A DNA stretch of 64,000 bases from Fimbriimonadaceae bacterium (lineage in GTDB: Bacteria; Armatimonadota; Fimbriimonadia; Fimbriimonadales; Fimbriimonadaceae), in NCBI GenBank assembly GCA_963666135.2, contig CAXXNR010000001.1:1513853-1577852 (forward strand). Direction: 5' to 3'. How positions within the stretch are numbered: position 1 is the first letter of the stretch; every line of letters starts with the position of its first letter. Positions 10,086 through 59,282 of the stretch are shown piece after piece. A program made the position numbers and the translations under genes. The notes under the pieces are model-generated. The model did no database searches. It saw nothing but the letters and a program-made list of their open reading frames with translations, and was not told the DNA's origin.

Positions 10086-10211
10086 GAGTCTGGGCAAGTT
10101 GCGCCGCTGGCAAGCGCTCTAACCTCTGAGCTACGTCCTTTCGGACGGCCGGAATCGAACCGGCGACCACTCGCTTAACAGGCGATAATCCAACAGCATC
10201 GGCCCAGACGA
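10086..10211 (-). ncRNA. Y-RNA-like gene 2 with tRNA-like module (YrlA-type)
   Basis: 5' UCUGGGCCGAUGCUGUUGGAUUAUCG pairs with 3' AACUUGCCCAGA. It has a perfect T-arm (GCCGG-UUCGAUU-CCGGC), a hairpin GUCCGAAAGGAC and a D-arm (GUAGCUCAGAGGUUAGAGCGC). Confidence 0.78.
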
Positions 10212-40521: not shown

Positions 40522-41057
40522 GGTGCGAAGTTCGACTCAGCGGCGAGGGCGGACAAGGGCTCGTTCTGGCGGGCAAGATTTTGGCGACGGCGGCGGCAAT
40601 CCATGCCGGACTGAACGCCACCCAAAGCCAATCCTATGGACCGGAAGCGCGCGGCGGCGCGTCCCGTTCCGAGGTCATCATCTCGGACGGCGACATCGAC
40701 TTTCCGAAGGCGATCAACGTCGATGTGTTTCTGGCTTTGACGCAGAAATCGTTCGATTCCTATCGGCACGACGTGAAGCCGACAGCGTTTACCATTATTG
40801 ATTCTGAAGCCGTATCTGCTTCTTCAAATGTGCCTTTCAAGGTCGTTTCGGCTCCAATCGTATCGATTGCGGTTAACGAACTGGGTCGTGCTTTGTTTAC
40901 GAACATCGTTGCGCTTGGGCTGGTCGTCGGCGTTTCGAACATCGTTCCGGTCGATGCAGTTCGTGCAGCGATCAAGCAGATCGTTCCAAAAGGCACCGAC
41001 GAAAAGAACCTGAAGGCGTTTGAGCTGGGACTAGAAGAGGCTCAGAAGCAGGCGTAA
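40518..41057 (+). CDS. korC: 2-oxoacid:ferredoxin oxidoreductase gamma subunit
   Basis: ATG 40518 overlaps the korB stop (ATGA). RLSGEGGQGLVLAGKILA....G.....QSYGPEARGG.S is the gamma-subunit signature. Confidence 0.85.
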   Translation: MRCEVRLSGEGGQGLVLAGKILATAAAIHAGLNATQSQSYGPEARGGASRSEVIISDGDIDFPKAINVDVFLALTQKSFDSYRHDVKPTAFTIIDSEAVSASSNVPFKVVSAPIVSIAVNELGRALFTNIVALGLVVGVSNIVPVDAVRAAIKQIVPKGTDEKNLKAFELGLEEAQKQA

Positions 41058-44753: not shown

Positions 44754-44945
44754 GGATTCGAGAGAGTTCTGATATTTCCTCGGTCAATAGTCGAGTCAGT
44801 TTCGAAACTCCAAGTTTTGGTGCTGCGGATCGTAAGATCCGTGTTCTTGCAGGTTCAACATTGGTCTAACGACCAGTGGCACCCCTGGCCAGAATCGAGT
44901 TCTGAAATTGGCTCGGTCAATCGTTAACGGTAAATGGTCATGCTC

Positions 44946-45103
44946 GCGCTCCAACCTGGCTCCGATCTCGCATCATGGTCATTTGTCATTCGTAATTCGT
45001 CATTCCTTACCTCTTACGTCCTACATCCAAAATTCTCGCCCTCCAACCTGGCTCCGATCTCGCACCATGGTCATTTGTCATTCGTAATTTGTCATTCCTT
45101 ACC
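44946..45103. repeat. two direct copies of a roughly 66-bp unit (period 92 bp)
   Basis: CGC(G/C)CTCCAACCTGGCTCCGATCTCGCA(T/C)CATGGTCATTTGTCATTCGTAATT(C/T)GTCATTCCTTACC occurs at 44946-45011 and 45038-45103. Related GTCATTCGT / ACGTCATACGTC low-complexity tracts lie at about 14960-15000, 17575-17690 and 19436-19470. Confidence 0.75.
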
Positions 45104-46255: not shown

Positions 46256-47668
46256 ATGGAATACTTACGTCGCGCGTCTTTCTTTACCGTTCTGTCTGTA
46301 GCACTTGTCTTGGGTTGCCACCGAGATTCCCAGCCAATGGACCAGGATGGCAAGACCAAAGTGAACCTCCCTTCTCCGTGGGCAACATCATCGCCGAAGG
46401 AACAAGGCGGTTTGAGACTGGTCGCAATTCAGCCAACGATACCTGCCGAGTTCTCGCATCTGTTGAACTACGAGAACTGGCCGAAAAACCACAAGGACAA
46501 TCCAAATCAGTTCATTTGGCTTGAGTCGTTGACTAAGGAAAATAATGAACTCCTAAATGACTTTGTCCGCATTCGCTTCGGTCTGGTCGGCAAAGACGGA
46601 GAGTTTGCCACGATATTTCGCGATATTGTCGATTCAAACCAAAACTCCAACACGGTCTTCGCCCTTGAGGTTCCTCCAAACCCAAGTCCCAACTACCATG
46701 GAAGCGAACTCGTGGCCATGGATGGCGCGAAAGTTCTGGGCAGGTGGGTTATTGACGGAATGCCTACTCCTCAGAAGCAAATTGGAGACGAGGAAAAGGC
46801 GGTACTGTCTGGTGAAGCCAACGGGATGAGAGTCGCATGTGTGAGTAGCCAACCGTATCGTCTATACGGAAACAAAGCACCAAATATCTCATTCCGTCAT
46901 TACTTCCATACATTGGCGATAACCGACTCCAAGTCTGGAAAGCCCGTCGACCTGAGCAACTATAACATCTTGTCAAAGAACACTAGGTCAACCTGGGAAG
47001 CTAAACCTCAACAAGAGAGTCTTTGCCAGCAAGTAGCCGGCAAGGTCGGCCAGGTTCTTCTGAGTGACGGCAACCAGTTCCTGTCGGATACAAAGATGAT
47101 GGAGTATGAGATTACTCTTCAGAAGTTCGCGACTTACGATGAAGAGATTCGAATCAAGAACCTTAGCATAGAACGCTTGGTATGGGACTCAAACCATCCA
47201 AACACATTCAGCTTCATAACGAGCAACGCTACAGCACAAGATTTTGAAACTCCAAGCGGAGTGAAGCTTACTATCCCGGCTTACGATCGGGCAAATTGCT
47301 CAGGACAAAACTGGATCGGCATTGGTGTTCAGTTTCCGACCGGGTACAAAAACCTTATCATTAAGGCTTCACCACTGTATAAAAAGTACCGTAAACCAGT
47401 TAATATTATCTTGTTCCACCCCAGCTTTCCCCAGATCGGCCAATCGATATCTTCATCGTCAAGCGATGATTTCTTGACATTTGGCATGGTCATTCGTGAT
47501 CCTCTTCGCAAAGGAAAATGGATCGAACCGTCCTTTCCTGTCGTTGTCCGTCAAAAAGCGATTATTGAAGAAGGAAAGGTGAACCTTCGGCTTCCGGTAG
47601 AGCATGTCAAGGTCTCGGCAAAATCACCCGCTAAGAGCCTTGGCGGCGGCAAGGCAAAGGCACCCTAG
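46256..47668 (+). CDS. hypothetical lipoprotein
   Basis: FFTVLSVALVLGC is a lipobox. 470 aa with no recognisable domain. The 3' end overlaps the convergent gene by 45 nt. Confidence 0.5.
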   Translation: MEYLRRASFFTVLSVALVLGCHRDSQPMDQDGKTKVNLPSPWATSSPKEQGGLRLVAIQPTIPAEFSHLLNYENWPKNHKDNPNQFIWLESLTKENNELLNDFVRIRFGLVGKDGEFATIFRDIVDSNQNSNTVFALEVPPNPSPNYHGSELVAMDGAKVLGRWVIDGMPTPQKQIGDEEKAVLSGEANGMRVACVSSQPYRLYGNKAPNISFRHYFHTLAITDSKSGKPVDLSNYNILSKNTRSTWEAKPQQESLCQQVAGKVGQVLLSDGNQFLSDTKMMEYEITLQKFATYDEEIRIKNLSIERLVWDSNHPNTFSFITSNATAQDFETPSGVKLTIPAYDRANCSGQNWIGIGVQFPTGYKNLIIKASPLYKKYRKPVNIILFHPSFPQIGQSISSSSSDDFLTFGMVIRDPLRKGKWIEPSFPVVVRQKAIIEEGKVNLRLPVEHVKVSAKSPAKSLGGGKAKAP

Positions 47669-48514
47669 ACCGTAGTAGGTGTATTCGAGATCGGCATCGG
47701 GGTCGGCGGCGCACGAGCGGAACCCGCCCTCGGACGTCGCCATCGAGCCGGCAAACTGCACGCTGCGCTTCAGTGGTTCTTTCTTGAGCGTGCCGATCAT
47801 AGCTAGAGCTGTCATCGAAGTGAAGGTCGAGAGAAGGTCGGGTATCGGCGCTTCGGCGTGCGCTCGGAAGCCGCCGTCGGGGTGTTCCATCGATTGGAGA
47901 AAGTCTGAGGCGTCATATAGGTCCCAGTTGATCTCCGGATTCGTATGCATCAGCACGACTCGGTATAGATAGCCGACCGCCGCACAGGTCGAATTGGTTT
48001 GCGATTTGCCTTGCGATCCGCAGTCGATGAATCCGCCGTCGCTTTGCTGCAGGTCGAGAATGCCCTGGATGGAAGCTTCGCTCGTTCTATGTCCTTGGTC
48101 GGCCATGTCTTCGCACAAAGCTCCTAAAAACGTCCAATAGGCGCTGGGCTCGCCTACCGTTCTCGTGAGACATCCCGAATCTAGCCTCCATTTGGCCAGG
48201 CAATCCTGAGTGCCGCGCGGCGAGTCTTGACCGCATATCTCGGCAATCGACAGCCTCGAAAAGCACTCCGGGACGTCGGCTATTGGGCCGTCATAGAGCG
48301 AGTAGAGAACCGATTCGCCAATCTCCTCCGGCCTTGTTAGGGCCAGCAGGCGCAGGGCGAAATCGGTGTAATAGGGGTCGGACGAACCTGCGCGGCCCCG
48401 ATAGCCGCCATCTTGCTGGCGAAACGATAGGACAAAGTCGGCGATGCGGCTCTTTAGCGCAGGGCTCAGGCCGCGTGAGCCTTCGAGCAAGATCGCGTCG
48501 ATGATCTGGCTCAT
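47624..48514 (-). CDS. prenyltransferase/squalene-oxidase-repeat (alpha-alpha toroid) protein, protein-prenyltransferase-beta-like
   Basis: Repeated Q.DGG(F/Y) motifs (FRQQDGGYRGRAG, LQQSDGGFIDCG, MEHPDGGFRAH, ATSEGGFRSC). ATG overlaps the upstream stop (ATGA). Confidence 0.7.
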   Translation of the reverse strand: MSQIIDAILLEGSRGLSPALKSRIADFVLSFRQQDGGYRGRAGSSDPYYTDFALRLLALTRPEEIGESVLYSLYDGPIADVPECFSRLSIAEICGQDSPRGTQDCLAKWRLDSGCLTRTVGEPSAYWTFLGALCEDMADQGHRTSEASIQGILDLQQSDGGFIDCGSQGKSQTNSTCAAVGYLYRVVLMHTNPEINWDLYDASDFLQSMEHPDGGFRAHAEAPIPDLLSTFTSMTALAMIGTLKKEPLKRSVQFAGSMATSEGGFRSCAADPDADLEYTYYGLGCLCLAAAKALSG

Positions 48515-50151
48515 GCCGGCCTTTTCTCGGGCAAGACAACCCGCGCCAGGAAACCGAGAAGCGACTGCAACGCCGGATCGGGGTGCTCTTCGGCGAGGCT
48601 CAGCGCTCGCTGGCGAAGCTTTACGTAAAGAGATTCAGCTTTGGCGAACGCGCCTGACTCGCGGTAGATCGCCGCCAGCTCGCTGATCATCGTGCCGCTC
48701 TTGGGATCGCAGAGCGCTTTCTTGATGGCTTGGCCCGCTCCGGCTTCCAGCGCGAACGCCAGAAGAACCGTCGGCCTCATTGCCCGCGCATCAAGGCCCA
48801 TCGAGCCTTTGTTGTCGGCGTCCTCCCAGTCGTCAAGGTCGTTTTGAACCTGATAGGCTTCGCCGAGATAGGCTCCAAAGCGATTCAACAGCTCGGGGGA
48901 GACGACTTCTCCGGCCGCCCGCAGACCGACATAGAGAGCTGCGGAAAAAGCGGGTGCGGTCTTCTGGCGATAACATCTCAGCGCATCGAGCGGAGATAGA
49001 ACTTCAGGGCGTTCGCGGGTCCACTGCAGCTCTTGCCCTTGGCCCCGGCAGAGCTCAATATGCGCTGCCGACATCTCTTTCATCATGTCCGACGTTGCCT
49101 GCGGACCAAGTTCGCTGGAGCAAGAAGCAATGAGATCGTAGCCGAGTCCGACCAAGTAATCGCCGATGTTGATGGCAATCGGCACGCCGTGAGTTCGATG
49201 CAGCGTCTTTCGGCCATAGCGCATCAGGTCGCCGTCTTGGATATCGTCGTGCGCCAGCGACGCTTTGTGCATCGCCTCGATGGCAACCGCAAGCCTCTTG
49301 ACTGTGTCCGGAACCAGGGGTTCGAGGTCGGTCTGAGAGTCGAGAACGCCTAGTCCGTGCTTGCTTACGGCATACGATGCCAAGGTCACAAACGGTCGGA
49401 ACCGTTTGCCGCCAACAGAGAGCCATTGGTGCGCAATTCTATCGGCGTCCGTGTTGCCGTCGATCCATTTCGTCTCGAAAAGCCTGTTGGCGAACCGAAG
49501 CAGGGGCACATAGCTGGTGTAGCTTTTAGCCAGCTTATCTTCCCTTAGTTGAAGGCACCGCGAAAGTTCTGTGAGGTCGGCCTCGGTGTCTTCACATCCG
49601 TCTGTCAGGAGCGGCACGGCCATATGCGGAATGCCCCATTCGGAGATGCGGCCGTACGACTTTTCGAGCGAATCGAGGCAAGCCACGCCCAGGATCGCAT
49701 CGGCTTGGCCTTCCAGAGCGTGCATCGTCACCGAAGTCACGCCTTCGGCTACGGCGACGCGGTAGCCCAGCTTCTCGGCCCTGGTTTGGATGTCGCTGAT
49801 CGGACACAAGGCGCAGTGCGCGCAGATGAGGCCTTCGCTGTCGAAAGCAGCTGAGCACGATGTAGAAGAGCGTAAGCAGTGAGGAAGGAGCAGGAGCCTT
49901 CTGTCGAAGGGGGTTGCTGCAAAGGCTGAGGCCCACCAGGCATTGCTGAGGACGACCATGGCGAAACCGGTGTTTTCGTGGGGGAGGTTTAGCCGTTCGA
50001 CTAGCGAGATGGCCAGCATTCGCAACGTTTCTTGGCTCGGTATGCCGTCAAATTGAACTTGCGTGGCGGCGTCCCTGATCACCTGCCGAATCTCAGCCGA
50101 CTCGGGCATTCGCTTTATATCCAATATGTTCGGCGTCGGTTCTGTCGGCAT
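48511..50151 (-). CDS. fusion: N-terminal Cys-rich DUF116-like domain + C-terminal trans-polyprenyl diphosphate synthase
   Basis: The N-terminal half contains LLLLPHCLRSSTSCSAAFDSEGLICAHCALCPI (DUF116-like, tentative). The C-terminal half has a first Asp-rich motif (LAHDDIQDGDLMRYGRKTLH) and a second motif reading YQVQNDLDDWED. The start is ATG 50151 (2 nt after the upstream stop) or GTG 50169. Confidence 0.7.
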   Translation of the reverse strand: MPTEPTPNILDIKRMPESAEIRQVIRDAATQVQFDGIPSQETLRMLAISLVERLNLPHENTGFAMVVLSNAWWASAFAATPFDRRLLLLPHCLRSSTSCSAAFDSEGLICAHCALCPISDIQTRAEKLGYRVAVAEGVTSVTMHALEGQADAILGVACLDSLEKSYGRISEWGIPHMAVPLLTDGCEDTEADLTELSRCLQLREDKLAKSYTSYVPLLRFANRLFETKWIDGNTDADRIAHQWLSVGGKRFRPFVTLASYAVSKHGLGVLDSQTDLEPLVPDTVKRLAVAIEAMHKASLAHDDIQDGDLMRYGRKTLHRTHGVPIAINIGDYLVGLGYDLIASCSSELGPQATSDMMKEMSAAHIELCRGQGQELQWTRERPEVLSPLDALRCYRQKTAPAFSAALYVGLRAAGEVVSPELLNRFGAYLGEAYQVQNDLDDWEDADNKGSMGLDARAMRPTVLLAFALEAGAGQAIKKALCDPKSGTMISELAAIYRESGAFAKAESLYVKLRQRALSLAEEHPDPALQSLLGFLARVVLPEKRPA

Positions 50152-50153
50152 AG

Positions 50154-52088
50154 CTAGTGTCGGAGGCACCTTCCGAGGGCTTCCACGGCCCAGATCATCG
50201 GGTACAGCTTTTCGGAATACCAGAGTTTAGCGAAATATAACCCTATCGGCTGGGCGTCGTTCAGGCCGTCCCGCTCAATGCACGGAATGAGATACGCAAG
50301 TCCGCTCTCGATCGCTTCTTCAATTTCCCTTTTCGGTTTGAAATATGAGAGGGCAGAAAGGGATAAAGAGGTTTCTTGGAGCATCGAGGGACTCCCGATA
50401 GCGGCTCCCCATCCGCCGTCTACGTTTTGCGCTTTAAGGAGGTAATTGATGCCTTTGTCGGTTGTTTCGTTCCTTTGGATGCTTTCGCCGTAGGCCATCA
50501 GGACGCGGGCTGTGCCGAAAGCGGGATTCTCGTTGTCGCGGGTGAGTTGGCTGCCGAACCACAGGGGCACCCATGAACCGTCGGCTCGCTGGGTCTTGGC
50601 GAGGTAGTCGTAGCCTCGGGCTTTCGCCGTTTCGGCTTTGGAAAAGAGTTCTTTGAGCCCTCTCCCCGACCCTCCCCCATGTGATGGGGGAGGGAGCATT
50701 TCCGATTCTTGCCTGGAACCCCCATCTGTGTTCGCTTCGCTCACACTTCTTCCCCCTGCAAGCAAGGGGAAGATGAGTTTGTTCTTGTCTTCTAGCGACT
50801 GGATCGCCCGTATCGCGTGGGCCGTGATGTCGGCGCAGCTTTGGTCGAAGGGCAGGCGTCCCCAGCCGCGGCAGAACGGAGGCCAGCCGCCGTCTCTGTT
50901 CTGAAGGTTGAGGAGCCAGGTGATACCTTTCTCAATTTGGCCGGTTGGGATGGTCGGACTTGTTAGGCTTCCAGAAAGAACTAGCTGCGCTGCCGAGGTG
51001 TCGTCGCCGTCGGGAACCGAGCCGCTGAGGTCGGTCCACCCCCAGCCGCCGGGAGCTGCGTGAGTGAACGGATGGACGGTCGTTGTTTGGTTCGCCAAGG
51101 TCCACTCGATGGCAGATCGCGGCGGCTCGACTCTGGCTGTTCGCAGTGCGTTGATCGCGCACGACGTCACCCATTGAGCCAGATTCGTGTCAATCGGCCA
51201 CGAACCGTCTTCTCGTTGCTGGCTCCTGAGGAAGATAAGGGCTTTTGCTAGAACGCGGTCAATGGGGGTGCTTTGCCCCCTCCCTAACCCTCCCCCGCCG
51301 AGCGGGAGAGGGGATTTCTCCCTCCCCCATCCTATGGGGGAGGGCTGGGGAGAGGGTTCGTCTTTCCCATCTGAAGTAGGAAGATCGTTGCGAATCGTCA
51401 GCAACGACATCGAGACAAACGCCGTCAGCGGGGTCGCTTCGAGGAAGCCGCCGGACTCAGGCATGATCTGCTGGAGGATGCGAAGCGCTTTCTTTTCCGT
51501 CAACTTCCCAAGAACGGTTTGTCCTCGTTGCTTGTCGATGGCCAATCCGACAGCGATCAACGCAGGCATGGCGTAGCTGACGACTTGGAGCTTTAGCAAG
51601 TTGAACAACTGATAAGGCATCGCGGCCAACGGATAAGGAAGCCTCGGCACGGAAGACCAGCTCACGATGCCCGCAATGGCGCATGTCGTGAGGATCGGCA
51701 CCGAGAACGTGTGGTCCTCGCCGTAGATCTCGTGGATTCCTGCGGCTATATCGTCACCGAGAATGCTTTTAAGGTAGGCGAGCGCCCTTGCATCTTCGAC
51801 ACGACCAGTGATTTTCAACGCAGACAAGACTAAAAGCGTCGTGGATGGATTGCTTAGCGACTTCGGACAGTCACCCCAGCCGCCGTCGGATTTCTGGGTT
51901 TGAATTAGCCACGCCAATCCTCTTTCGATCTTGGGCGAATCTGAAGCATCGCCGTTTAGGTGCAAGGCGATAATCGCCACTGCTCCAGCTAAAGCAGAGG
52001 ACGACAGCTCGCCGACCCAATGGCCATCAGGTGTCAGCTCAGCCATAAGAGCTTCAACGGCAATGTGCAAGGCCTGCTCCGGCGTCAC
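50154..52088 (-). CDS. shc: squalene-hopene cyclase family class II terpene cyclase
   Basis: GGWGWTDLSGSVPDGDDTSAAQLVL carries the DxDDTA-type catalytic motif. Multiple QW-type repeats are present (SDGGWGDC, EDGSWPID, RDGGWPPF, ADGSWVPLWFG, VDGGWGAA), plus DITAHAIRA (compare SHC DVTAHVL). I prefer GTG 52088, which overlaps the upstream stop (GTGA). The upstream 93 codons of the track ORF overlap the radical SAM gene. Confidence 0.8.
   Translation of the reverse strand: MTPEQALHIAVEALMAELTPDGHWVGELSSSALAGAVAIIALHLNGDASDSPKIERGLAWLIQTQKSDGGWGDCPKSLSNPSTTLLVLSALKITGRVEDARALAYLKSILGDDIAAGIHEIYGEDHTFSVPILTTCAIAGIVSWSSVPRLPYPLAAMPYQLFNLLKLQVVSYAMPALIAVGLAIDKQRGQTVLGKLTEKKALRILQQIMPESGGFLEATPLTAFVSMSLLTIRNDLPTSDGKDEPSPQPSPIGWGREKSPLPLGGGGLGRGQSTPIDRVLAKALIFLRSQQREDGSWPIDTNLAQWVTSCAINALRTARVEPPRSAIEWTLANQTTTVHPFTHAAPGGWGWTDLSGSVPDGDDTSAAQLVLSGSLTSPTIPTGQIEKGITWLLNLQNRDGGWPPFCRGWGRLPFDQSCADITAHAIRAIQSLEDKNKLIFPLLAGGRSVSEANTDGGSRQESEMLPPPSHGGGSGRGLKELFSKAETAKARGYDYLAKTQRADGSWVPLWFGSQLTRDNENPAFGTARVLMAYGESIQRNETTDKGINYLLKAQNVDGGWGAAIGSPSMLQETSLSLSALSYFKPKREIEEAIESGLAYLIPCIERDGLNDAQPIGLYFAKLWYSEKLYPMIWAVEALGRCLRH
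50658..50694. repeat. palindromic G/C-homopolymer element inside the cyclase CDS (copy A)
   Basis: CCCTCTCCCCGA-CCCTCCCCCAT-gtg-ATGGGGGAGGG has an 11-bp stem. It is translated in frame as ...LPPPSHGGGSGRG... Confidence 0.75.
51275..51356. repeat. palindromic G/C-homopolymer elements inside the cyclase CDS (copy B, inverted relative to A, plus a second hairpin)
   Basis: CCCTCCCCCAT-cct-ATGGGGGAGGG-CTGGGGAGAGGG together with CCCTCCCCCGCCGAGCGGGAGAGGGG. It is translated in frame as PSPQPSPIGWGREKSPLPLGGGGLGRGQ. Confidence 0.75.
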
Positions 52089-53638
52089 GCTTTCGCCTTC
52101 CTTTGCTTCAGTCGAAACGCCGCGTTCCACCACACAACTTGGCTTTTGCCGATGACCTGAGCGGCCAAACTCCGCGCCGTCGGCACACCTGAACCTTGCT
52201 CGTTGTCCCAGACCAGCTTCGGTACCCACTTGAAGTTCAGTCGGTAAGATTCGATTACGGTTTGCCAGTGAGTTTTGGTCAGACTCGGCAATGGGTCGCT
52301 TTGACCAAGCGGGGCGAGGGCAACAGGAAACACAGACATTCGCTGATCGCTGAGTTCTTGAACCCATCTGAGGCTCTGCCGGGCTTCGTCAGGCGTTTCT
52401 GTTGGAAGCCCGAGGACGATGGAAACCAGGGGATAGAAGCCTGCGCGAATCAAGCGCCTCATCTGCTCCTGGGTGTGCGCGTGCCATTCCTCTGGCGGGC
52501 CTCCGGCCATCTTGGCGCGGCCGCCGTTCCTCGCCAGCAACGGACCGGAAGCCGTCTCAACGCCGATATTGACCCAGACGTACTCGTGCTGCTGGCCTAG
52601 AGTAAGCAATCGGCGGACTTCCAACAGCTCTTGGTCGCTGAACTGGGCGATGGAGCTGACGTTCACGTGGTCGATCTGCATCAGCTTAACAGCTTTGTTT
52701 TCTCTGAGTTTGGTTAGCGTCTTGATGAGCGTTTCTGGTTTGACTTTCGCTCCTGATGAGCCGTAGCGGAAGAAGTCCTCGCTGAGCAAGGAAAGGCTGG
52801 TTTGGCCGCCTTCGAGGTTCTTTACAATATCGCTCTCGATGGTTTCGATCGGCAAGTGGCACATCGGGGTATGGGCGATGGTGCAGAACTCGCAACCCCA
52901 TCCGCAGCCGCGGCTCATCTCGACGGCGCCCATCGTGGCAGCTGCATTGATGGCTGGGATGTCGACTGGTTGCTCGCCCTTGACGGTTCCTAAGCCTTGG
53001 CAGGTCTCAATAATCTGATTGATGATGGAAGCAATGTTGCCTTCGCAGTACCCGTCGACGACGGTGAGTTGGGCGTTCTTTTGCAAGCGTTGCAGAATCC
53101 CCAAGGTTTTTGCCGGCAAGGTGCCGGCGCTCCCAGCTATCTCATTTGGACGTACCGGGTTATCTATCTCTTGCGCGATCTGCCACGCTCCCGGTCCGCC
53201 GATGACGACTTGGGCGTTAGGAGCTTTCTTGAAAGCAGACAACAGAACCTGTTCGAAAAACACCTGAGGCCAGATGCGGCCGCCCGCGATGGCAACCATC
53301 GTCGATGAGTTCATGCCCTTGCCCAGCGGTTCGCCGGTAGCGATGCCGATGATCTTCGTTTCCGGCCCAATCGCATCTACAAGGCGGTCCGGATGGCAGA
53401 CACACACCTCATGTCCAGCGTGGACGAGTGCCGATTCAATGCGCCGCAAACCCAAAGGCGCGACTTTGGCAGGCAACGGATTGGGTCTTGGAACCGGCAT
53501 CAATAGGTTTTCGAGAATGAACCTTGGCGTCGATGTCGTCTGGCTGGCGGCAACCATGGCGTCGAACAAGCAGGCGTAGTCGGCCATCAGCAGACGGTCT
53601 GCCGTGAGAACGATTTGGTGGCCGCCTTTAGTCGCCAT
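52085..53638 (-). CDS. radical SAM enzyme with N-terminal B12-binding-like (Rossmann) domain
   Basis: EMSRGCGWGCEFCTIAH is a CxxxCxxC radical SAM motif about 240 aa after an N-terminal alpha/beta domain (KIIGIATGEPLG...). 517 aa. Confidence 0.75.
   Translation of the reverse strand: MATKGGHQIVLTADRLLMADYACLFDAMVAASQTTSTPRFILENLLMPVPRPNPLPAKVAPLGLRRIESALVHAGHEVCVCHPDRLVDAIGPETKIIGIATGEPLGKGMNSSTMVAIAGGRIWPQVFFEQVLLSAFKKAPNAQVVIGGPGAWQIAQEIDNPVRPNEIAGSAGTLPAKTLGILQRLQKNAQLTVVDGYCEGNIASIINQIIETCQGLGTVKGEQPVDIPAINAAATMGAVEMSRGCGWGCEFCTIAHTPMCHLPIETIESDIVKNLEGGQTSLSLLSEDFFRYGSSGAKVKPETLIKTLTKLRENKAVKLMQIDHVNVSSIAQFSDQELLEVRRLLTLGQQHEYVWVNIGVETASGPLLARNGGRAKMAGGPPEEWHAHTQEQMRRLIRAGFYPLVSIVLGLPTETPDEARQSLRWVQELSDQRMSVFPVALAPLGQSDPLPSLTKTHWQTVIESYRLNFKWVPKLVWDNEQGSGVPTARSLAAQVIGKSQVVWWNAAFRLKQRKAKA
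53111..53159. repeat. 49-nt hairpin element inside the radical SAM CDS
   Basis: TGCCGGCAAGGTGCCGGCGCTCCCAGCTATCTCATTTGGACGTACCGGG contains a GCCGGCA-agg-TGCCGGC stem. It is translated as VRPNEIAGSAGTLPA. Confidence 0.8.
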
Positions 53639-53647
53639 TGAGGTTCA

Positions 53648-54466
53648 TTATGGCTGAGCGTCGAGCAGGTCGATCAGGGCGTCGATGTCGTCCTTTATCG
53701 GCGATACGGGCGGCGTGTAGGGTCCTCCGCACTCTGGGCAAGTGTCGCCTGATTTCGGAGCAGGTCCAAGCGGAACCATTTTACAGACGGGACAGGCTTG
53801 TTTGGTGCGCAGATAGAACATCCGCTTGGCGTTCGCATCGGGCGACATGTAGAGTCCAGGAGAGCCGCTGATGGCTTGATCCTGAACGTACATTGGGAAT
53901 ATGATTGCGCCTTGGGGGCATATGCGCGAACACGCCGGGCAGCCGGTTTTGCATGAGTCTGGGTTCGTGATGACGACGTGCTGGGCTTCGTCGCGCGTAT
54001 AAACGCCGAAAAGGCAGAACTGCAAGCACTGGCCGCAGTCGTCGCATCGGTCTTTATCGACAACGGGGTGCCAGCGGGGTGCAGGGGCTAAGTCAGATAA
54101 AACGATAGCTCCAGTCTCTGCCGGCAAGGTGCCGGCGCTCCCAGCTATCTCACTTGGATGTACCGGGATCTCCCGCAACAACGCCTCAAAACAACCCTCG
54201 GTAGACTCAAAAGCATCGTATCGAAAACAGGCCGCACTCAATCCGTGGCGGTGCAAAATCCATTGCGTAGGACGCGGATGAAGGTCGGACCAAACCGCCG
54301 AGATCGAACCCAATGAGGCCAGTTGATTCCATAAAGAGCTAGACTCAGGAATGTCGTAAAGCGATGGTGCCAAAACGACCCGAAAACCGGCAAAAAGCAA
54401 ACGATCGGCAAGTTCGCGAACTCGATCTTCGTCTATTGAACGGCATAAAACAACGGTGGCACTCAT
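53648..54466 (-). CDS. 2x[4Fe-4S] ferredoxin-domain protein with N-terminal alpha/beta domain and C-terminal zinc-ribbon
   Basis: CDDCGQCLQFC and CKTGCPACSRICP cluster motifs, then CPVC...CPEC. It is the first gene of the operon, ending 9 nt before the radical SAM gene. Confidence 0.7.
   Translation of the reverse strand: MSATVVLCRSIDEDRVRELADRLLFAGFRVVLAPSLYDIPESSSLWNQLASLGSISAVWSDLHPRPTQWILHRHGLSAACFRYDAFESTEGCFEALLREIPVHPSEIAGSAGTLPAETGAIVLSDLAPAPRWHPVVDKDRCDDCGQCLQFCLFGVYTRDEAQHVVITNPDSCKTGCPACSRICPQGAIIFPMYVQDQAISGSPGLYMSPDANAKRMFYLRTKQACPVCKMVPLGPAPKSGDTCPECGGPYTPPVSPIKDDIDALIDLLDAQP
54119..54167. repeat. 49-nt hairpin element inside the ferredoxin-like CDS (47/49 identical to 53111-53159)
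   Basis: TGCCGGCAAGGTGCCGGCGCTCCCAGCTATCTCACTTGGATGTACCGGG is translated as VHPSEIAGSAGTLPA. A diverged intergenic relative sits at about 37686-37715. Confidence 0.8.
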
Positions 54467-54565: not shown

Positions 54566-55972
54566 ATGAAGCAGTTCCTCATCGAAAAAGGCGTCCCATC
54601 GGTTGTCGCTCTGATAGCGATAGGCGCAATGGCAGCTTGGTTTAAGAGCTATAGCCAAGACCTCGGCATCAAAGACCGGCCGCTTGGCATCGAGCTCTCA
54701 GAGAGGAAGCAGGCCGAACCGGAACCGACGCAGACCAACCAAGCCGCGCCTCAAGCCTCCCAAGTAACCGCAAATCCGGCTGCGACCATTGAAGATCTGC
54801 CCGGAGAATGGACACAGTTTCGTGGACCGAACGCCGATAACGTCAGTCCCGAAACGACTCCCTTAACCAGCCTATTCCCAGCACAAGGTCCGCCTTTGCT
54901 GTGGGCTGCCGACATGGGCGAAGGATATGCCGCGGCTGCGGTCCATAAGGGCCGCGTGTTCGTCCTCGACTACGACACTCCCACTCGTTCGGATGTATTG
55001 AGATGCCTCTCGCTGGCGAACGGTCAAGAGGTTTGGCGGCGTAGCTATCCAGTAGTGGTGAAGCGCAACCATGGTATGTCACGAACTGTTCCAGCCGTGA
55101 ACGATAAATACGTCGTCACGCTTGGACCGAAGTGCCACCTCATGGTTTGCGATCCAGTCACGGGCAAAGAGTTTTGGCGCAAAGACCTGGTCGCTGAGTT
55201 CGGAGTCGAAGTGCCCCAATGGTATGCAGGCGAGTGCCCGATCATCGACGGCAACAACGTCATCGTCGGCACGGGCGGCAAAGCGCTAATGGTGGCGTTC
55301 GACCTCGCCACAGGCAAGCCGGCCTGGAAAACTCCGAATCCTAAAGGCTGGAAGATGACGCACAGCACCATCGTCAAAACGACCTTCCAAGGCAAGCCGA
55401 TTTACATATGGTGCGCCAATGAAGGCGTTGTCGGCGTTTCGGCCGAGGACGGCAAGCTGTTGTGGGAGACCGAGGAGTGGAAGGTCAGTACGGCGACGGT
55501 ACCGACTCCAATACCGATTGGCGATGGTCGACTCTTTATTTGTGGCGGCTACGATTCTGGCGCGGCGATGTTTCAGATAACGGCTGCCGGACTCAAGCTT
55601 CTTTATCGAGTGGCGTCGAAGGAGTTCGGCAGCGACCAGCAGACGCCGGTGCTTTACAAGAATTACATCTATGGCGTGACGCCCGACAAGAGCCTAACGT
55701 GCCTTACCCTCGACGGTAAAGTTGCATGGAAAAGCGGATCGACAACGAACTTCGGCCTCGGACCGTATCTCATCGCCGACGGCAAGATTTTTGTGCTCGA
55801 CGATAAAGGCACGCTCACAATCGCCGAGGTGTCTCCCAAAGGGTACAAGCCTCTGGCTCAAGCTAAGGTCCTTCAAGGGCCGGACGCGTGGGGGCCGATG
55901 GCGCTTGTTGGCGGGCGCTTAATCTGCAGAGACTTGAAAAGGATGGTTTGCTTGGATGTTTCGAAGAAATAG
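54566..55972 (+). CDS. membrane-anchored PQQ-like (BamB-type) beta-propeller protein
   Basis: N-terminal TM helix (VPSVVALIAIGAMAAW), a low-complexity linker, WTQFRGPNADNVS, then repeated G..(L/V)W(R/K) blade motifs. Confidence 0.75.
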   Translation: MKQFLIEKGVPSVVALIAIGAMAAWFKSYSQDLGIKDRPLGIELSERKQAEPEPTQTNQAAPQASQVTANPAATIEDLPGEWTQFRGPNADNVSPETTPLTSLFPAQGPPLLWAADMGEGYAAAAVHKGRVFVLDYDTPTRSDVLRCLSLANGQEVWRRSYPVVVKRNHGMSRTVPAVNDKYVVTLGPKCHLMVCDPVTGKEFWRKDLVAEFGVEVPQWYAGECPIIDGNNVIVGTGGKALMVAFDLATGKPAWKTPNPKGWKMTHSTIVKTTFQGKPIYIWCANEGVVGVSAEDGKLLWETEEWKVSTATVPTPIPIGDGRLFICGGYDSGAAMFQITAAGLKLLYRVASKEFGSDQQTPVLYKNYIYGVTPDKSLTCLTLDGKVAWKSGSTTNFGLGPYLIADGKIFVLDDKGTLTIAEVSPKGYKPLAQAKVLQGPDAWGPMALVGGRLICRDLKRMVCLDVSKK

Positions 55973-56867
55973 CCTGATCTTAATCGGAATATTGGTCCTG
56001 GCCGGTTGTTCGCCAAAAGGCGGCAACGGCAACGTCTCAAAAGTCGATCCCAACTCTCCCGAGCCGACATACGGCAAAGAGCTACAGTTCGACGTTCCGC
56101 TTGAGAAGCCAACGGGACTGGCTAAGACGGACAACGCGATCTATGTCGTTGGCGATCGGCAATTGCTTAAGTTTGACTTGAAAGGCAAACTCGCAGAAAC
56201 GATTGACGCGCCCGATGAGCCTACATGCGTTACCGTGAGTCCGAATGGCAGAGTGTTTCTTGCCGGACTCAATAGGGTCTACGAGCTCATTGACGGACAG
56301 GTTCAACCTCTTCTGGTTCTTTCATCAGGAAAGGCGCATATCACCTCTATATCATCGTCGCCTACCTATTTGTGGATAGCGGACGCTGGCTCAAGGAGGG
56401 TTATGAGAGCCGAGCTGAGAACGCTGGCTCTAACTGAGTACGGCCAGAAGACCAAAGACTATCCGGGCTTGATCGTTCCCAGCCCGCACCTTGATGTGGC
56501 CGTACTCGGCAATGAAGACGTCATCTGGACCAACCCCGGCGCGCACCGGTTTGAACAGCATGACAAAGATGGAAAGCTTCTGAAGGCCTGGGGTAAGGCG
56601 TCCCAGGATCTAGACGGTTTCTGCGGATGCTGCAATCCGACCGACGTGGCTCGGTTCATGGACAACACGATCATCACATCGGAGAAAGGTCTGCCGCGCA
56701 TCAAAACCTATTGGCGAGGCAAGTTCGACAACGTGGTAGCGCCAGCTAGCGCTCGATCTGAGAAGGCTGCCGGCATCGACTTAGCTGCCGACAGCACGCG
56801 CATTTATGCCCTAGATCCGTTCGCCAAGAATGTCACCGTCTACATTCATAAGGATAAGCTCAAATGA
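55956..56867 (+). CDS. NHL/six-bladed-propeller-like lipoprotein with CGCC motif
   Basis: LILIGILVLAGC is a lipobox. Repeated beta-strand blades are visible (IYVVGD, RVFLAG, LWIADAG, VIWTNPG). It carries a DGFCGCCNPTDVA Cys cluster and overlaps the previous gene by 17 nt. Confidence 0.55.
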   Translation: MFRRNSLILIGILVLAGCSPKGGNGNVSKVDPNSPEPTYGKELQFDVPLEKPTGLAKTDNAIYVVGDRQLLKFDLKGKLAETIDAPDEPTCVTVSPNGRVFLAGLNRVYELIDGQVQPLLVLSSGKAHITSISSSPTYLWIADAGSRRVMRAELRTLALTEYGQKTKDYPGLIVPSPHLDVAVLGNEDVIWTNPGAHRFEQHDKDGKLLKAWGKASQDLDGFCGCCNPTDVARFMDNTIITSEKGLPRIKTYWRGKFDNVVAPASARSEKAAGIDLAADSTRIYALDPFAKNVTVYIHKDKLK

Positions 56868-57076
56868 AGGAAAGCAAGCAGACATCGCGGCGCGAATTCC
56901 TCTTGGGCCTTGTCCGATGGGGTGCGATTGCTGGAGCCGCAGGAGTTGCCGTAAAGCTAACCGCTAAAGACGGCGAGACCTGCACGAACCTAGGCATTTG
57001 CAGCTCGTGCGGACGGTTTGATGGATGCGGATTGCCGCAAGCACTTTCAGCCAAAGCAACGCAACGTGAATCATGA
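56864..57076 (+). CDS. 70-aa Tat-signal mini-protein with Cys-rich mature part
   Basis: SRREFLLGLVRWGAIAGAAGVAV is a twin-arginine leader. The mature part is about 35 aa with CTNLGICSSCGRFDGC (Cx5Cx2Cx5C). ATGA overlaps occur at both ends. Confidence 0.6.
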   Translation: MKESKQTSRREFLLGLVRWGAIAGAAGVAVKLTAKDGETCTNLGICSSCGRFDGCGLPQALSAKATQRES

Positions 57077-57636
57077 GCGAACAAGGCGAGAAGAGAACGA
57101 GGCGAGAAGTCCTGAGAGAAGGGATACGGCTGGGCGGCCTGATCACAGTCAGCGCAACGCTCGGTTCATTCGCGTCAAGATCTTCCGCCGAAGGAACCGT
57201 TTGGCAGATCGACCCGTATCTCTGCGTCCAATGTGAAAAGTGCGGCACGGAATGCGTTCTCGAGCCTTCCGCGGTCAAGTGCGTGCATGCTTATGCAATG
57301 TGCGGCTACTGCCAGCTTTGCTTCGGACTTTACCGCGATCAGAGAACAGGGAACGAGATTGCCGCCGAAAACAACCGCTGTCCGACCGACGCCATTAAGC
57401 GCAACTTTATTGAGGATCCGTATTACGAGATGTCGATCGACGAGTCGCTGTGCGTCGGCTGTTCCCGGTGCGTCAAAGGATGCAACCAGTTCGGCAATGG
57501 GTCGATGCACTTGCAGATTCGGCACGACCGTTGCGTCAACTGCAACCAGTGCGCCATCGCCCAGCATTGCCCAGCAGGGGCTATCAAGCGCGTGCCTGCC
57601 TCTCAGCCGTACTTGTTCAAGACGGTGAAGAAATGA
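57073..57636 (+). CDS. Tat-exported polyferredoxin (NapG/MauM/DmsB-like, four Cys motifs)
   Basis: TRREVLREGIRLGGLITV is the leader. Four Cys motifs follow: CVQCEKCGTEC, CGYCQLC...CP, CVGCSRCVKGC and CVNCNQCAIAQHCP. Confidence 0.75.
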   Translation: MSEQGEKRTRREVLREGIRLGGLITVSATLGSFASRSSAEGTVWQIDPYLCVQCEKCGTECVLEPSAVKCVHAYAMCGYCQLCFGLYRDQRTGNEIAAENNRCPTDAIKRNFIEDPYYEMSIDESLCVGCSRCVKGCNQFGNGSMHLQIRHDRCVNCNQCAIAQHCPAGAIKRVPASQPYLFKTVKK

Positions 57637-57764
57637 GGGGCTTGCGATTGCCCTCTCTCTTGAGAAGTGGGAAGGAACCAGGTATCGCTGGCAACTTAAG
57701 AACGAGCCAATGTGATTTGAACGCGGAACTGCAGCCTCTGGATGTATCGCATCATATGAGTGCT

Positions 57765-57862
57765 GTCATTCCGAGCGCGGCGAGGAAACTGAGTGGACTC
57801 ATGGCCAGTAGCTGCTATCAGGAAGCGCCCGCACTCAGATCCCTCGCCGCGCTCGGGATGAC
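57765..57862. repeat. roughly 100-nt hairpin repeat in the only sizeable gap of the operon
   Basis: The arms GTCATTCCGAGCGCGGCGAGGAA (57765-57787) and TCCCTCGCCGCGCTCGGGATGAC (57840-57862) are complementary at 21 of 23 positions. The stem is extended by CTGAGTG/CACTCAG. A related arm, GTCATCCTGAGCGTTAGCGAAGGACC, is at 17407-17432. Confidence 0.75.
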
Positions 57863-59282
57863 ACGGAGTGAAGCTAGACAACTCCCCAGCAACGACTTTC
57901 CGGCAACCTCTCTAGCTGGACAGGCAAACGCGGCTACAGGTCGACGACAGAATGGTCAGGGAGTGGGGAAGCTAGTAGCGGCTGCCGCCCTGCTCGCATT
58001 AACACCCCTTACCTACGCCCAAGAACAGTCCCGCCAAGATCCGCCCGACTTCACTTCGGGTTATGCGCTGCCGTCGCCGACAGCACCCGGGCCGCGCGCT
58101 GACCTATTCGGATACATCGACGTCGCTGTTCTCATGCTTGTCATGGCTCTTTGTGCTTTCTTCCTTTTGCGCAAACGGTCGAGGCGAGAAATCCAGGTCC
58201 TATCGATCTTCTCGCTCCTCTATTTTGGATTCTATCGTCTTGGCTGCGTGTGCTCGGTCGGCTCGGTACAGAATATCGCTTTGGCTCTAGGCGACAATAA
58301 ATACGCCGTGCCGTTTACCGTCATGGCGTTTTTCCTGCTCCCATTGGTCTTTACGCTGTTCTTTGGACGGGTGTTTTGCGGATCTGCCTGCCCGCTCGGG
58401 GCGATGCAGGATCTTGTGGCGTTCAAACCGCGAAAAGTGCATCCGGGCCTGGATCGCGGGCTCGGAATCTTGCCTTATGTCTGGCTGGCGATCGGCGTGT
58501 TCTTCGCCTACGAAGGCGCGGCGTTCTTCATTTGCGAATACGATCCCTTTGTCGGTTTCTTTCGGCTGAGTATGCGCTCCGGCGTGTTTTGGGTAAGCAT
58601 CGTCTTTCTGGTTCTGAGCGTCTTTGTCGGCCGACCCTATTGCCGGTTCCTTTGCCCCTATGGCGGTTTGCTTAGGCTGATCAATCCGCTGGCTAAGTGG
58701 AAGGTCAGCATCACGCCAAACGAGTGCATCAATTGCCACCTATGCGCTGAAGCGTGTCCGTTTGGATCGATCCAGCCCCCGACTTCGGCTTCGGAGGACC
58801 TAAATCGACCGAAAGCTCGTAAGCATCTCGCATGGGCGGTTCTTTCGGTGCCGATCCTTGCCGTTTTGTTCGCTGGAATTGCCTATTGGGCTGCTCCGGC
58901 TTTGGCTAGTCAACATCTGACTGTTGCCAAGGCGAAGGTCGTTTGGGAAGAAGGCAAACAACCATCAGAAAAGACGCCAGACAAGCTGCGCGCGTGGCGT
59001 AATACGGGTAGACCCGAAGGCGAACTTTACTTCGAAGCCTTAAAGGTGAAAAATAAATTCCAGGAGGATGCGCCGTACCTTGGAGGCTTTATTGGATTGA
59101 TAATCGGGCTGAGCCTTGTATCAGCAGCTAGAATAAGGAAGCGTACGCAGTATCTCGCGGACGAAGGCTGCGTATCGTGCGGCCGATGCTATTCGTCTTG
59201 TCCTGTGGAGCAAGCAAGAGTAAACCCCGATCTAGCCCCGAGGCTTGAGCAGTTGAAGAAGGAGTTAAGAGTCTTACCGTGA
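57858..59282 (+). CDS. NapH/MauN/NosR-type integral-membrane polyferredoxin
   Basis: GRVFCGSACPLGAMQD and GRPYCRFLCPYGG are CxxxCP membrane-proximal motifs. CINCHLCAEACP and CVSCGRCYSSCP are [4Fe-4S] motifs, and there are at least 6 TM helices. The start is uncertain: ATG 57858 gives a possible leader (...GRRQNGQGVGKLVAAAALLALTPLTYA). The 5' part of the track ORF (57450-) overlaps the previous gene. Confidence 0.7.
   Translation: MTRSEARQLPSNDFPATSLAGQANAATGRRQNGQGVGKLVAAAALLALTPLTYAQEQSRQDPPDFTSGYALPSPTAPGPRADLFGYIDVAVLMLVMALCAFFLLRKRSRREIQVLSIFSLLYFGFYRLGCVCSVGSVQNIALALGDNKYAVPFTVMAFFLLPLVFTLFFGRVFCGSACPLGAMQDLVAFKPRKVHPGLDRGLGILPYVWLAIGVFFAYEGAAFFICEYDPFVGFFRLSMRSGVFWVSIVFLVLSVFVGRPYCRFLCPYGGLLRLINPLAKWKVSITPNECINCHLCAEACPFGSIQPPTSASEDLNRPKARKHLAWAVLSVPILAVLFAGIAYWAAPALASQHLTVAKAKVVWEEGKQPSEKTPDKLRAWRNTGRPEGELYFEALKVKNKFQEDAPYLGGFIGLIIGLSLVSAARIRKRTQYLADEGCVSCGRCYSSCPVEQARVNPDLAPRLEQLKKELRVLP

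Follow-up and report, generated by a model that had tools for sequence, protein, structure and literature searches.

A conserved five-gene operon around an SHC-like cyclase in a Fimbriimonadaceae bacterium, a candidate uncharacterised terpenoid pathway

A stretch of 64,000 nt from a Fimbriimonadaceae bacterium (Armatimonadota; contig CAXXNR010000001.1 of assembly GCA_963666135.2, positions 1,513,853 to 1,577,852; hereafter the window) contains an operon of five genes, all on the minus strand (54466..47624). They encode a ferredoxin-like protein, a radical S-adenosylmethionine (SAM) enzyme, a class II terpene cyclase, a fusion of a DUF116 domain with a trans-prenyl diphosphate synthase, and an alpha/alpha-toroid protein (Table 1). 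It seems moderately probable, judging from the sequences, that the operon constitutes a conserved pathway by which a cyclic isoprenoid is made through the steps proposed below; this product would probably be a membrane lipid and would not derive from squalene of the hpnCDE or Sqs type. An earlier note on this DNA, made from the letters alone, had suggested an uncharacterised terpenoid pathway on such a substrate. This is upheld by the model scores of the cyclase and the radical SAM enzyme, by the lack of squalene-synthesis genes among the window's open reading frames of at least 200 amino acids and by the conservation of the cyclase and synthase pair. We therefore regard the locus as a genuine, uncharacterised terpenoid pathway and not as a hopanoid locus.

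Operon organisation and the SHC-like cyclase

Direct reading of the gene junctions bears out the tight same-strand spacing which the earlier note described. The TAA stop codon of the ferredoxin-like gene precedes the ATG of the radical SAM gene by 9 nt, the stop codon of the radical SAM gene shares a 4-nt GTGA overlap with the GTG start of the cyclase gene, and a 4-nt ATGA overlap joins the synthase gene to the toroid gene. The TAG of the cyclase gene is separated by two nucleotides (ct) from the ATG of the synthase gene at 50151, a junction which becomes a 16-nt overlap if the GTG at 50169 is used. The cyclase start at 52088 corresponds to the start of a public protein of 644 amino acids (aa) which is 100% identical (P0001; P and L numbers denote proteins and loci). 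Within the operon, no promoter-like or terminator-like site exceeds the shuffled expectation, and Rfam at gathering thresholds yields no matches in the window.

The motifs read in the earlier note are all present, namely the DGDDTS acid motif and QW-like repeats of the cyclase, the first DDxxD motif of the synthase and the CxxxCxxC motif of the radical SAM enzyme. Pfam models confirm the domain assignments with 105 bits for SQHop_cyclase_C, 94 for SQHop_cyclase_N, 130 for polyprenyl_synt, 111 for DUF116 and 50 for Prenyltrans; Radical_SAM falls just below its threshold (27.7 bits, cut-off 29.5), as do the Fer4 families. A Pfam scan of the neighbourhood, which covered window open reading frames (ORFs) of at least 200 aa, revealed no squalene-synthesis genes (SQS_PSY, amine oxidase) and no second cyclase. 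The observation that hpnCDE-type genes are absent from the window thus holds among these ORFs.

The acid motif of the cyclase is located at residues 360–365 and aligns to the PDVDDTA sequence of squalene-hopene cyclase (SHC), and five QW-like motifs (at residues 57, 283, 388, 492 and 546) extend from residue 57 to 560. These features are not specific to SHC, since DxDD and QW motifs are common to all class II cyclases which protonate alkenes. By model scores, the protein is neither a canonical SHC nor a canonical oxidosqualene cyclase (OSC): it reaches 96.1 bits against the hopene-cyclase model TIGR01507 (cut-off 431.1), 114.6 bits against the squalene-cyclase subfamily model TIGR01787 (cut-off 322.7), 78 bits against the OSC model (cut-off 851) and 42 bits against the tetrahymanol synthase model (cut-off 500). 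Scores below the cut-offs for SHC, OSC and squalene cyclases speak against a place within bona fide SHC, which the earlier note had named as a refutation of its reading.

Conversely, a profile built from 30 family members gives the SHC of A. acidocaldarius (1gsz) 142 bits, and this over its N- and C-terminal parts only, while members of the family score ~500 bits against each other. The central ~150 residues of the family are unalignable to SHC and bear the invariant sequences VVSYA(L/M)PAL and GG(F/Y)LEA(T/V)PL. Family members are 560–700 aa long, and the best 120 homologues, out of thousands in the databases, are all full-length and 40–84% identical. Asp360, Asp362, Asp363 and His424 are invariant in the family. 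The conserved His aligns with the His of the SHC sequence DVTAH, which we take to be His451 in SHC numbering. Given the invariant PDxDDT and the SHC-aligned His, a cyclisation initiated by protonation of an alkene would be expected.

A perfect 25-nt hairpin, CCCTCCCCCATnnnATGGGGGAGGG, occurs twice in the cyclase gene. Both copies are in frame and lie in separate, lineage-specific loop inserts of the cyclase; comparable inserts are found at the same loops in some distant relatives (P0045, P0081, P0056).

By taxonomy, scores and context, the cyclase family is most likely the published “SHC-like/unknown” clade. Two phylogenetic studies set a matching clade outside SHC and OSC (PMC7306690; PMC12414744), and the shared features comprise divergence from SHC and OSC, retention of DxDD, lengths of 550–700 aa, occurrence in Planctomycetes and Verrucomicrobia including Gemmata and Chthoniobacter, and a genomic context hinting at a non-squalene precursor. 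In fact, for the SHC-like cyclases of planctomycetes such a precursor was inferred from the genes around them, and the same study described lineages with cyclases but without Trans_IPPS_HH enzymes, for which undiscovered precursor routes are expected (Santana-Molina et al., 2020; PMC7306690). The idea of a non-squalene precursor is therefore already published and not new here. The clade was later placed as sister to cyclases of all-head-to-tail epoxy-polyprenyl chains, with its function and structure both listed as unknown and its characterisation called for (McShea et al., 2025; PMC12414744). Two differences stand out: the papers do not list Armatimonadota, with which the window lineage groups by a context shared with L007 and L067, and their main texts mention neither radical SAM, ferredoxin-like, DUF116 or toroid partners nor the NDxxD motif described below.

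The DUF116-prenyl synthase fusion, the Fe-S enzymes and the toroid

The DUF116 domain of the fusion protein exhibits seven conserved Cys in the family alignment, including a CxxCxxC motif, and is predicted to be an Fe-S redox domain. Its AlphaFold2 (AF2) model has a pLDDT of 83.8 and finds no significant fold in the PDB, the best match having an E-value of 0.016 and TM scores reaching at most 0.3, with weak flavodoxin-like or B12-domain-like matches. The fusion was noticed before in Pirellula staleyi by Makarova et al. (2015; PMC5898192), who predicted DUF116 to be a flavodoxin-like, Cys-rich electron-transfer domain. It is a constant feature of the family, being present in 120 of the 120 best synthase homologues.

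In the synthase domain, the first Asp-rich motif (DDIQD) is conserved and is preceded by Ala at position -5 and Ser at position -4, within a nearly invariant HKASLxHDD sequence. Position -5 is Phe or Tyr in the nearest geranylgeranyl diphosphate synthase structures (5jfq, 1wy0) and Ala in the polyprenyl synthase 4lob. According to the chain-length rule for trans-prenyl synthases, Ala at -5 corresponds to products longer than C20, and such a product is predicted here. The motifs which bind isopentenyl diphosphate (IPP), GGKRxRP and KT, are retained in the family. The second Asp-rich motif reads NDLDD, its Asn aligning to the first Asp of DDxxD in 5jfq, 1wy0 and 4lob, and NDLxD is conserved in at least 95% of 52 synthase relatives. 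Thus the first DDxxD motif cited in the earlier note stands, but it had been cited alone and the second motif is not a DDxxD. The combination of an invariant NDxxD with the long-chain Ala at -5 in a DUF116-synthase is new here.

The CxxxCxxC motif of the radical SAM enzyme lies at residues 245–252, and Cys245, Cys249 and Cys252 are invariant and the sole invariant Cys in 48 sequences. In the AF2 model (pLDDT 91.9), the radical SAM barrel lies between a Rossmann- or B12-binding-like N-terminal domain and a helical domain at the C-terminus, which agrees with the arrangement read from the sequence before. The enzyme scores 60.6 bits against TIGR04013 (cut-off 251). Orthology to HpnJ, HpnP or HpnR, which the earlier note had named as a sign of an ordinary hopanoid locus, is not borne out: the enzyme scores 17.8 bits against the HpnR model TIGR04367 (cut-off 650), and HpnP, HpnH and HpnJ are absent among its model hits.

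The top Foldseek matches are MgmA, MiaB, AprD4, RimO and TsrM, with TM scores of ~0.5 and identities of 12–16%. The designation of the enzyme as “B12-type” therefore holds at the level of the fold, which resembles MgmA and TsrM and equally the B12-free AprD4 and MiaB, but Pfam gives no B12-binding hit; homologues are named “B12-binding domain-containing radical SAM protein” by NCBI. The window enzyme shares the Rossmann-type N-terminal domain and the barrel with class B (cobalamin-dependent) radical SAM enzymes and the B12-free enzymes resembling them (MgmA, TsrM, AprD4), as well as with MiaB and RimO. In contrast to MiaB and RimO, the window enzyme lacks the Cys triad of the auxiliary cluster, its invariant Cys being the radical SAM three only, and a methylthiotransferase function was rejected on these grounds.

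The ferredoxin-like protein consists of a conserved N-terminal domain of ~100 aa and a 2x[4Fe-4S] domain, with conservation assessed across 36 loci. Its Cys clusters comprise Cys141, 144, 147 and 151 and Cys172, 176, 179 and 183, and a CxxC...CxxC tail (Cys225, 228, 243 and 246) is specific to the window’s lineage. The protein matches Fer4_7, Fer4_9 and Fer4_6 (E ~4e-5) and is HgcB/PorD-like; the best PDB match is the C-terminal ferredoxin domain of HdrA (E 2.4e-6).

A palindrome-containing repeat of 59 nt has one copy in the radical SAM gene and another in the ferredoxin-like gene (Table 1). The first encodes residues ~161–180, the only part of the radical SAM enzyme that AF2 models as a loop of low confidence. 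Together with the two 25-nt hairpins, these four palindromic repeats all lie in three operon genes, with no other copy in the window, and they encode Pro/Gly-rich loop inserts which are mostly absent from homologues.

The toroid protein matches PF00432 with 50.4 bits, and its best PDB match is the beta subunit of RabGGTase (E 1.6e-5). It bears no DxDD motif. Where the motifs place the repeat that carries the ligands, the toroid family reads D-V-E-Y-T, where the Zn motif of beta subunits is presumably D-x-C, and a Tyr occupies the position aligned to the His of the beta-subunit DPFHT sequence; both alignments are weak. No gene with PPTA repeats, which mark the alpha subunit, is found in the operon. 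A role as protein prenyltransferase beta subunit was rejected, as the Zn ligands are not conserved and the alpha partner is missing, and an origin as a duplicated cyclase domain was also rejected (BLASTP E 0.02 or worse). At its 3' end, the toroid gene overlaps by 45 nt with a convergent ORF of 470 aa, which begins like a lipoprotein (…VLGC) and matches nothing in Pfam.

Distribution and gene neighbourhoods

A scan of one genome per species with two family-specific cyclase peptides gave at least 593 confirmed loci. The family thus occurs in at least 593 species genomes across Planctomycetota, Verrucomicrobiota, Armatimonadota, Lentisphaerae and others. Carriers among the Planctomycetota include Gemmataceae, Planctomycetaceae, Pirellulales and Brocadiia, with Gemmata sp. 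IIL30 (L056) as an example, and those among the Verrucomicrobiota include Chthoniobacter flavus Ellin428 (L065).

The five window proteins were compared by tblastn with 80 retained loci, and partners were counted where the cyclase is flanked by 5 kb or more on each side, which applies to 43 loci. Of these 43, 34 have a DUF116-synthase next to the cyclase, and in 28 of the 34 it is on the same strand and starts at most 600 nt downstream. The ferredoxin-like gene is near the cyclase in 25 of the 43 loci, the toroid in 17 and the radical SAM enzyme in 10. The gene association is therefore conserved across phyla for the pair of cyclase and DUF116-synthase, and not generally for the radical SAM enzyme and the toroid. 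The five-gene order is repeated in L001, L082, L083 and L084 and is found in ~15 genome loci from Armatimonadota, Verrucomicrobiota, Planctomycetota and Brocadiia. L085 contains the same set with a split cyclase, and its ferredoxin slot is taken by an oppositely oriented gene of 240 aa without a Pfam hit.

Clustering of the neighbouring ORFs revealed two recurrent layouts. Type A, the layout of the window, consists of the ferredoxin-like, radical SAM, cyclase, DUF116-synthase and toroid genes, often followed by a GT4 glycosyltransferase gene, and its carriers are Armatimonadota, Verrucomicrobiota, Brocadiia and part of the Planctomycetota. Most Planctomycetes have type B, which lacks the window-type radical SAM enzyme and encodes a longer ferredoxin-like protein. 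Upstream of the latter lie a GcvH-like gene and often genes for a HemN-family radical SAM enzyme, an rSAM/SPASM-like protein, a CobW-type GTPase and a DegT aminotransferase (seen in L011, L017, L022, L047, L059, L045, L052 and L077). On the downstream side follow a 181-aa protein (c5), an MFS transporter, a GT4 and a toroid. The HemN-family enzyme scores below the HemN and HemW cut-offs. These type B radical SAM and other enzymes may be tailoring substitutes for the window’s radical SAM enzyme. That different radical SAM enzymes adjoin the cyclase in other lineages is new here, as is the frequent position of a glycosyltransferase 3' of the operon: such a gene, of the GT4 type, comes after the operon in L082, L083, L007, L034 and L067 and is found nearby in planctomycete loci.

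The radical SAM family itself is narrow, with 517 database matches at E ≤ 1e-5. All four homologues examined on long contigs lie within a type A operon (L001, L082, L083, L084), so that the family, in a further new observation, is confined to this operon wherever examined. Conversely, the ferredoxin-like gene, which the earlier note had assigned to the radical SAM enzyme as its dedicated electron donor, often occurs in loci without a window-type radical SAM enzyme, so that it is not simply a donor dedicated to it.

In loci of the Pirellulales and Gemmataceae types, the gene next after the DUF116-synthase encodes the c5 family (~181 aa; L013 3924-4469 and 14 other planctomycete loci). This family has the invariant motifs HxxHMTV, PxGR, GRxA and PAxELxE, shows no similarity in Pfam, NCBIfam or the PDB, and is absent from the window; a function as a chorismate-lyase-like head-group enzyme was rejected for want of detectable similarity. 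Two long proteins from metagenomic contigs resemble gene fusions. P0064 (1118 aa) was rejected as evidence of a radical SAM-cyclase fusion, as it aligns to residues 1–377 of the radical SAM enzyme only and a frameshifted gene call is equally likely. P0304 (882 aa) joins the C-terminal half of the cyclase to the DUF116-synthase; this is weak evidence and may be a gene-calling artefact.

Upstream of the operon lies a divergent set of five genes on the plus strand (Table 1). Its propeller and polyferredoxin part recurs beside the operon in L007, L009, L067, L082, L083 and L085. The set could supply electrons to the Fe-S enzymes, or it could be mere conserved synteny. Further away, three adjacent genes encode a 2-oxoacid:ferredoxin oxidoreductase, which is a possible source of reduced ferredoxin in the organism.

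Two other features of the window were noted. After a Ro60/TROVE-vWA gene come two candidate YrlA-like Y RNAs in tandem, which score 36.9 and 36.5 bits (E ~3e-6; gathering score 69). They contain sequences resembling the T-arm and the D-arm of tRNAs, and no tRNA is called at these sites by ARAGORN. Judging from these sequences, the gene and the candidates are probably a divergent bacterial Ro-Y RNA module. In addition, a 72-nt direct repeat lies downstream of an alpha/beta-hydrolase gene, with two copies which are 94% identical and start 92 nt apart, and a related 33-nt stretch is found elsewhere in the window.

Table 1. Operon genes, domains, repeats and other features of the window (positions in the 64,000-nt stretch).
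Feature	Position	Strand	Details
Ferredoxin-like gene	54466..53648	minus	272 aa
Radical SAM gene	53638..52085	minus	517 aa
Class II terpene cyclase gene (“SHC-like” family)	52088..50154	minus	644 aa from GTG
DUF116 + trans-prenyl synthase fusion gene	50151..48511	minus	546 aa from ATG; alternative GTG at 50169
DUF116 domain	49507..50151	minus	~215 aa; PF01976 110.6 bits, cut-off 25
trans-Prenyl diphosphate synthase domain	48511..49506	minus	PF00348 130.3 bits, cut-off 27
Alpha/alpha-toroid gene	48514..47624	minus	296 aa
59-nt palindrome-containing repeat, copy 1	53106..53164		in frame in radical SAM gene
59-nt repeat, copy 2	54114..54172		in frame in linker of ferredoxin-like gene; 90% identical to copy 1
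25-nt hairpin, one copy	50670..50694		in cyclase gene
25-nt hairpin, other copy	51320..51344		in cyclase gene
BamB-like PQQ_2 beta-propeller	divergent set 54566-63597	plus	468 aa; upstream of operon
303-aa protein	divergent set 54566-63597	plus	303 aa
NapH/NosR-like membrane polyferredoxin	divergent set 54566-63597	plus	610 aa
Second PQQ_2 propeller	divergent set 54566-63597	plus	648 aa
NuoE/NuoF-like fusion	divergent set 54566-63597	plus	791 aa
ORF convergent with toroid gene	46256-47668	plus	470 aa
2-Oxoacid:ferredoxin oxidoreductase, three genes	38528-41057	plus	POR_N/PFOR_II, TPP_enzyme_C, POR gamma
Ro60/TROVE-vWA gene	8030-9970	minus	
YrlA-like Y RNA candidates	9822-9946, 10087-10196	minus	tandem
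72-nt direct repeat	44940-45011 / 45032-45103		
33-nt stretch related to 72-nt repeat	17621-17653		

Proposed pathway, alternative explanations and significance

In the first step of the pathway that we favour, the DUF116-prenyl synthase fusion would build a linear isoprenoid chain longer than C20, in a reaction which may be redox-linked or otherwise non-canonical, as suggested by the fused Cys-rich DUF116 and the invariant NDxxD. The SHC-like cyclase would then protonate the terminal C=C bond of this chain through its DGDDT acid, helped by the SHC-equivalent His, and fold it into rings. This step should need neither oxygen nor an epoxide, which fits the DxDD motif of the cyclase, the lack of a conserved monooxygenase and the presence of the family in Brocadiia.

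Third, the radical SAM enzyme, reduced via the ferredoxin-like protein, may tailor an unactivated carbon of the substrate or the product. The best guess for its chemistry is C-methylation, as the best structural neighbour in the modelled comparison, MgmA, is a glutamine C-methylase, and as the HemN-like family, to which the type B enzymes belong, contains radical SAM methyltransferases; an HpnH-like attachment of a side chain would be the alternative. The toroid, which lacks catalytic motifs, most probably works alongside the cyclase or the synthase by binding the isoprenoid or passing it on. A new cyclase partner of this kind would fit the accelerated change at the SHC dimer surface which was found on the stem of the SHC-like clade (McShea et al., 2025; PMC12414744). 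Lastly, in many relatives, a GT4 glycosyltransferase would add a sugar head group. By analogy with the logic of extended hopanoids, the GT4, aminotransferase and MFS genes of relatives suggest an end product which is glycosylated, exported or membrane-anchored.

Several points weigh against this pathway. Around one fifth of the well-flanked loci have no synthase nearby, so that the cyclase may draw on a substrate produced at another site. Found in subsets of loci only, the radical SAM enzyme and the toroid count as tailoring or accessory and not core components, and the ferredoxin-like gene, by tracking the cyclase without the radical SAM enzyme, is not simply the dedicated reductant of that enzyme. 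Cobalamin binding by the radical SAM enzyme would be no more than a possibility: the B12-binding model PF02310 gives no hit in the window’s protein and was found in 3 of 120 homologues among the matches listed. As for the synthase, the NDxxD motif may mean that it does not carry out ordinary chain elongation. In the literature to mid-2026, no paper was found which assigns a product to the cyclase family. Finally, what has been observed are the gene content and order, the coupling, the domain identities, the motif states and their conservation; the substrate, the step order, the radical SAM chemistry and the functions proposed for DUF116, for the ferredoxin-like protein and for the toroid are inferred from them.

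Among known systems, the sesquarterpene pathway of Bacillus (sporulenol; HepS/HepT, YtpB and SqhC) shares the logic by which a trans-prenyl synthase feeds a non-squalene chain to an SHC-family cyclase. It had served as the model for the earlier suggestion that a linear polyprenyl chain is cyclised; the synthase beside the cyclase agrees with this, but since a synthase with NDxxD is atypical, a linear, regular chain is not assured. Furthermore, the operon has neither a YtpB-type class I step nor a heterodimeric HepS/HepT (the synthase scores 75.2 bits against the HepT model TIGR02748, cut-off 456.6), its cyclase is not SqhC, and the Bacillus system has no counterpart to the Fe-S fusion, the radical SAM enzyme, the ferredoxin-like protein or the toroid.

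The Lon15 and AtoE systems likewise employ class II beta-gamma cyclases on head-to-tail chains longer than C20, with adjacent genes for prenyl supply. However, they require an epoxidised substrate and O2 and belong mostly to actinomycete meroterpenoid clusters, whereas the SHC-like loci have no conserved monooxygenase and the family occurs in anaerobic lineages (Brocadiia L055 and L080). The thallusin (ebo) pathway was also considered and set aside, as its genes are unrelated.

Four other explanations have to be weighed. According to one, which we deem unlikely, the DUF116-synthase is a redox-dependent irregular coupling enzyme, and reductive loss of diphosphate yields a squalene-like or non-head-to-tail hydrocarbon without Sqs or HpnCDE, which is then cyclised. 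The invariant NDLxD in place of DDxxD is consistent with this, and the obligatory Cys-rich fusion and the adjacent ferredoxin-like gene would fit the need for electrons. Chrysanthemyl diphosphate synthase, the original work on which is reportedly that of Rivera et al. in 2001, is an irregular-coupling enzyme with the same Asp-to-Asn change. Indeed, Asn in this motif has been noted as significant for that enzyme (bioRxiv 10.1101/169417), and undiscovered precursor routes are expected for lineages which have cyclases but no Trans_IPPS_HH enzymes (PMC7306690). On the other hand, the IPP-binding motifs and the first DDxxD are kept as in elongating synthases, Asn is still able to ligate Mg2+, and DUF116 has no solved structural relative which could back any chemistry. 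Moreover, we know of no precedent for an Fe-S-dependent trans-prenyl synthase.

Of comparably low probability is a meroterpenoid, quinone-like or non-lipid acceptor, where the prenyl chain would be joined to a head group before cyclisation, as with Lon15 and MstE, and the Fe-S proteins would perform head-group redox chemistry. Meroterpenoid cyclases such as Lon15 do belong to the sister clade of the SHC-like cyclases (PMC12414744), the best solved relatives of the toroid are beta subunits of protein geranylgeranyltransferases, and the conserved divergent neighbours encode the NapH-like membrane polyferredoxin and the NuoE/F-like protein. Yet neither the operon nor its conserved neighbours include a UbiA- or ABBA-type prenyltransferase or a head-group gene, the neighbouring c5 protein resembles neither chorismate lyase nor anything else, and the toroid has no alpha subunit and altered Zn ligands (D-x-C to D-x-E, His to Tyr).

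That the operon is an ordinary hopanoid or sterol-like locus, with an SHC acting on squalene from hpnCDE or sqs genes elsewhere and a radical SAM enzyme serving as hopanoid methylase or side-chain enzyme, is decidedly improbable. It would account for the SQHop_cyclase_N and SQHop_cyclase_C domains, the DxDD and QW motifs and the JGI label of homologues as “squalene-hopene/tetraprenyl-beta-curcumene cyclase”. The hopanoid pathway (Shc/HpnF and HpnCDE; HpnH, HpnP/HpnR, HpnI, HpnJ and HpnO) also resembles the locus in its plan to cyclise and then decorate, with radical SAM tailoring after the action of a class II cyclase, and relatives add glycosyltransferase, aminotransferase and transporter genes. 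Against this stand the scores of the cyclase against the hopene-cyclase and subfamily models, the central family signatures which cannot be aligned to SHC, and the placement of the matching clade outside SHC and OSC (PMC7306690; PMC12414744). In addition, no Hpn equivalog model, HpnR included, is matched above its cut-off, a prenyl synthase adjoins the cyclase, and SQS_PSY and amine-oxidase genes are missing among the scanned window ORFs of at least 200 aa. Least probable is that the genes are neighbours by descent only, with incidental spacing: type A loci which share the divergent PQQ and NapH-like neighbours could come from related genomes, but the pair of cyclase and DUF116-synthase occurs in at least four phyla with otherwise unrelated surroundings, start and stop codons overlap by 4 nt, and the radical SAM family is seen in this context only.

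The favoured pathway can be extended to a bolder version, to which we attach little confidence. Here, the cyclase and the DUF116-synthase would make tricyclopolyprenol-type lipids from head-to-tail chains of at least C30 without oxygen, the radical SAM enzyme would add carbons, and the DUF116 protein would be the first Fe-S-dependent trans-prenyl synthase. Tricyclic terpanes (cheilanthanes) are “orphan biomarkers” in petroleum and ancient rocks, and, if true, this version would provide their long-postulated but never located biological source (PMC9247107).

Even apart from the product, an NDxxD prenyl synthase fused to an uncharacterised Fe-S domain would represent new enzymology in its own right. 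For the cyclase, earlier screens used cyclases alone on squalene or oxidosqualene, and the expression screen of McShea et al. covered SHC-type and OSC-type enzymes only (PMC12414744). The operon now names a set for co-expression, namely the DUF116-synthase, which would supply the substrate and is to be expressed under Fe-S-competent conditions, together with the radical SAM enzyme, the ferredoxin-like protein, the toroid and, optionally, a GT4. Knowledge of the SHC-like substrate would also constrain the evolution of hopanoid and sterol cyclases (PMC12414744). The family is among the largest class II terpenoid cyclase clades without a known substrate or product. As its carriers span soil, freshwater, marine and anaerobic lineages, the product could be a bacterial lipid that is abundant yet has gone unrecognised, and orphan biomarkers in the geological record might stem from it.

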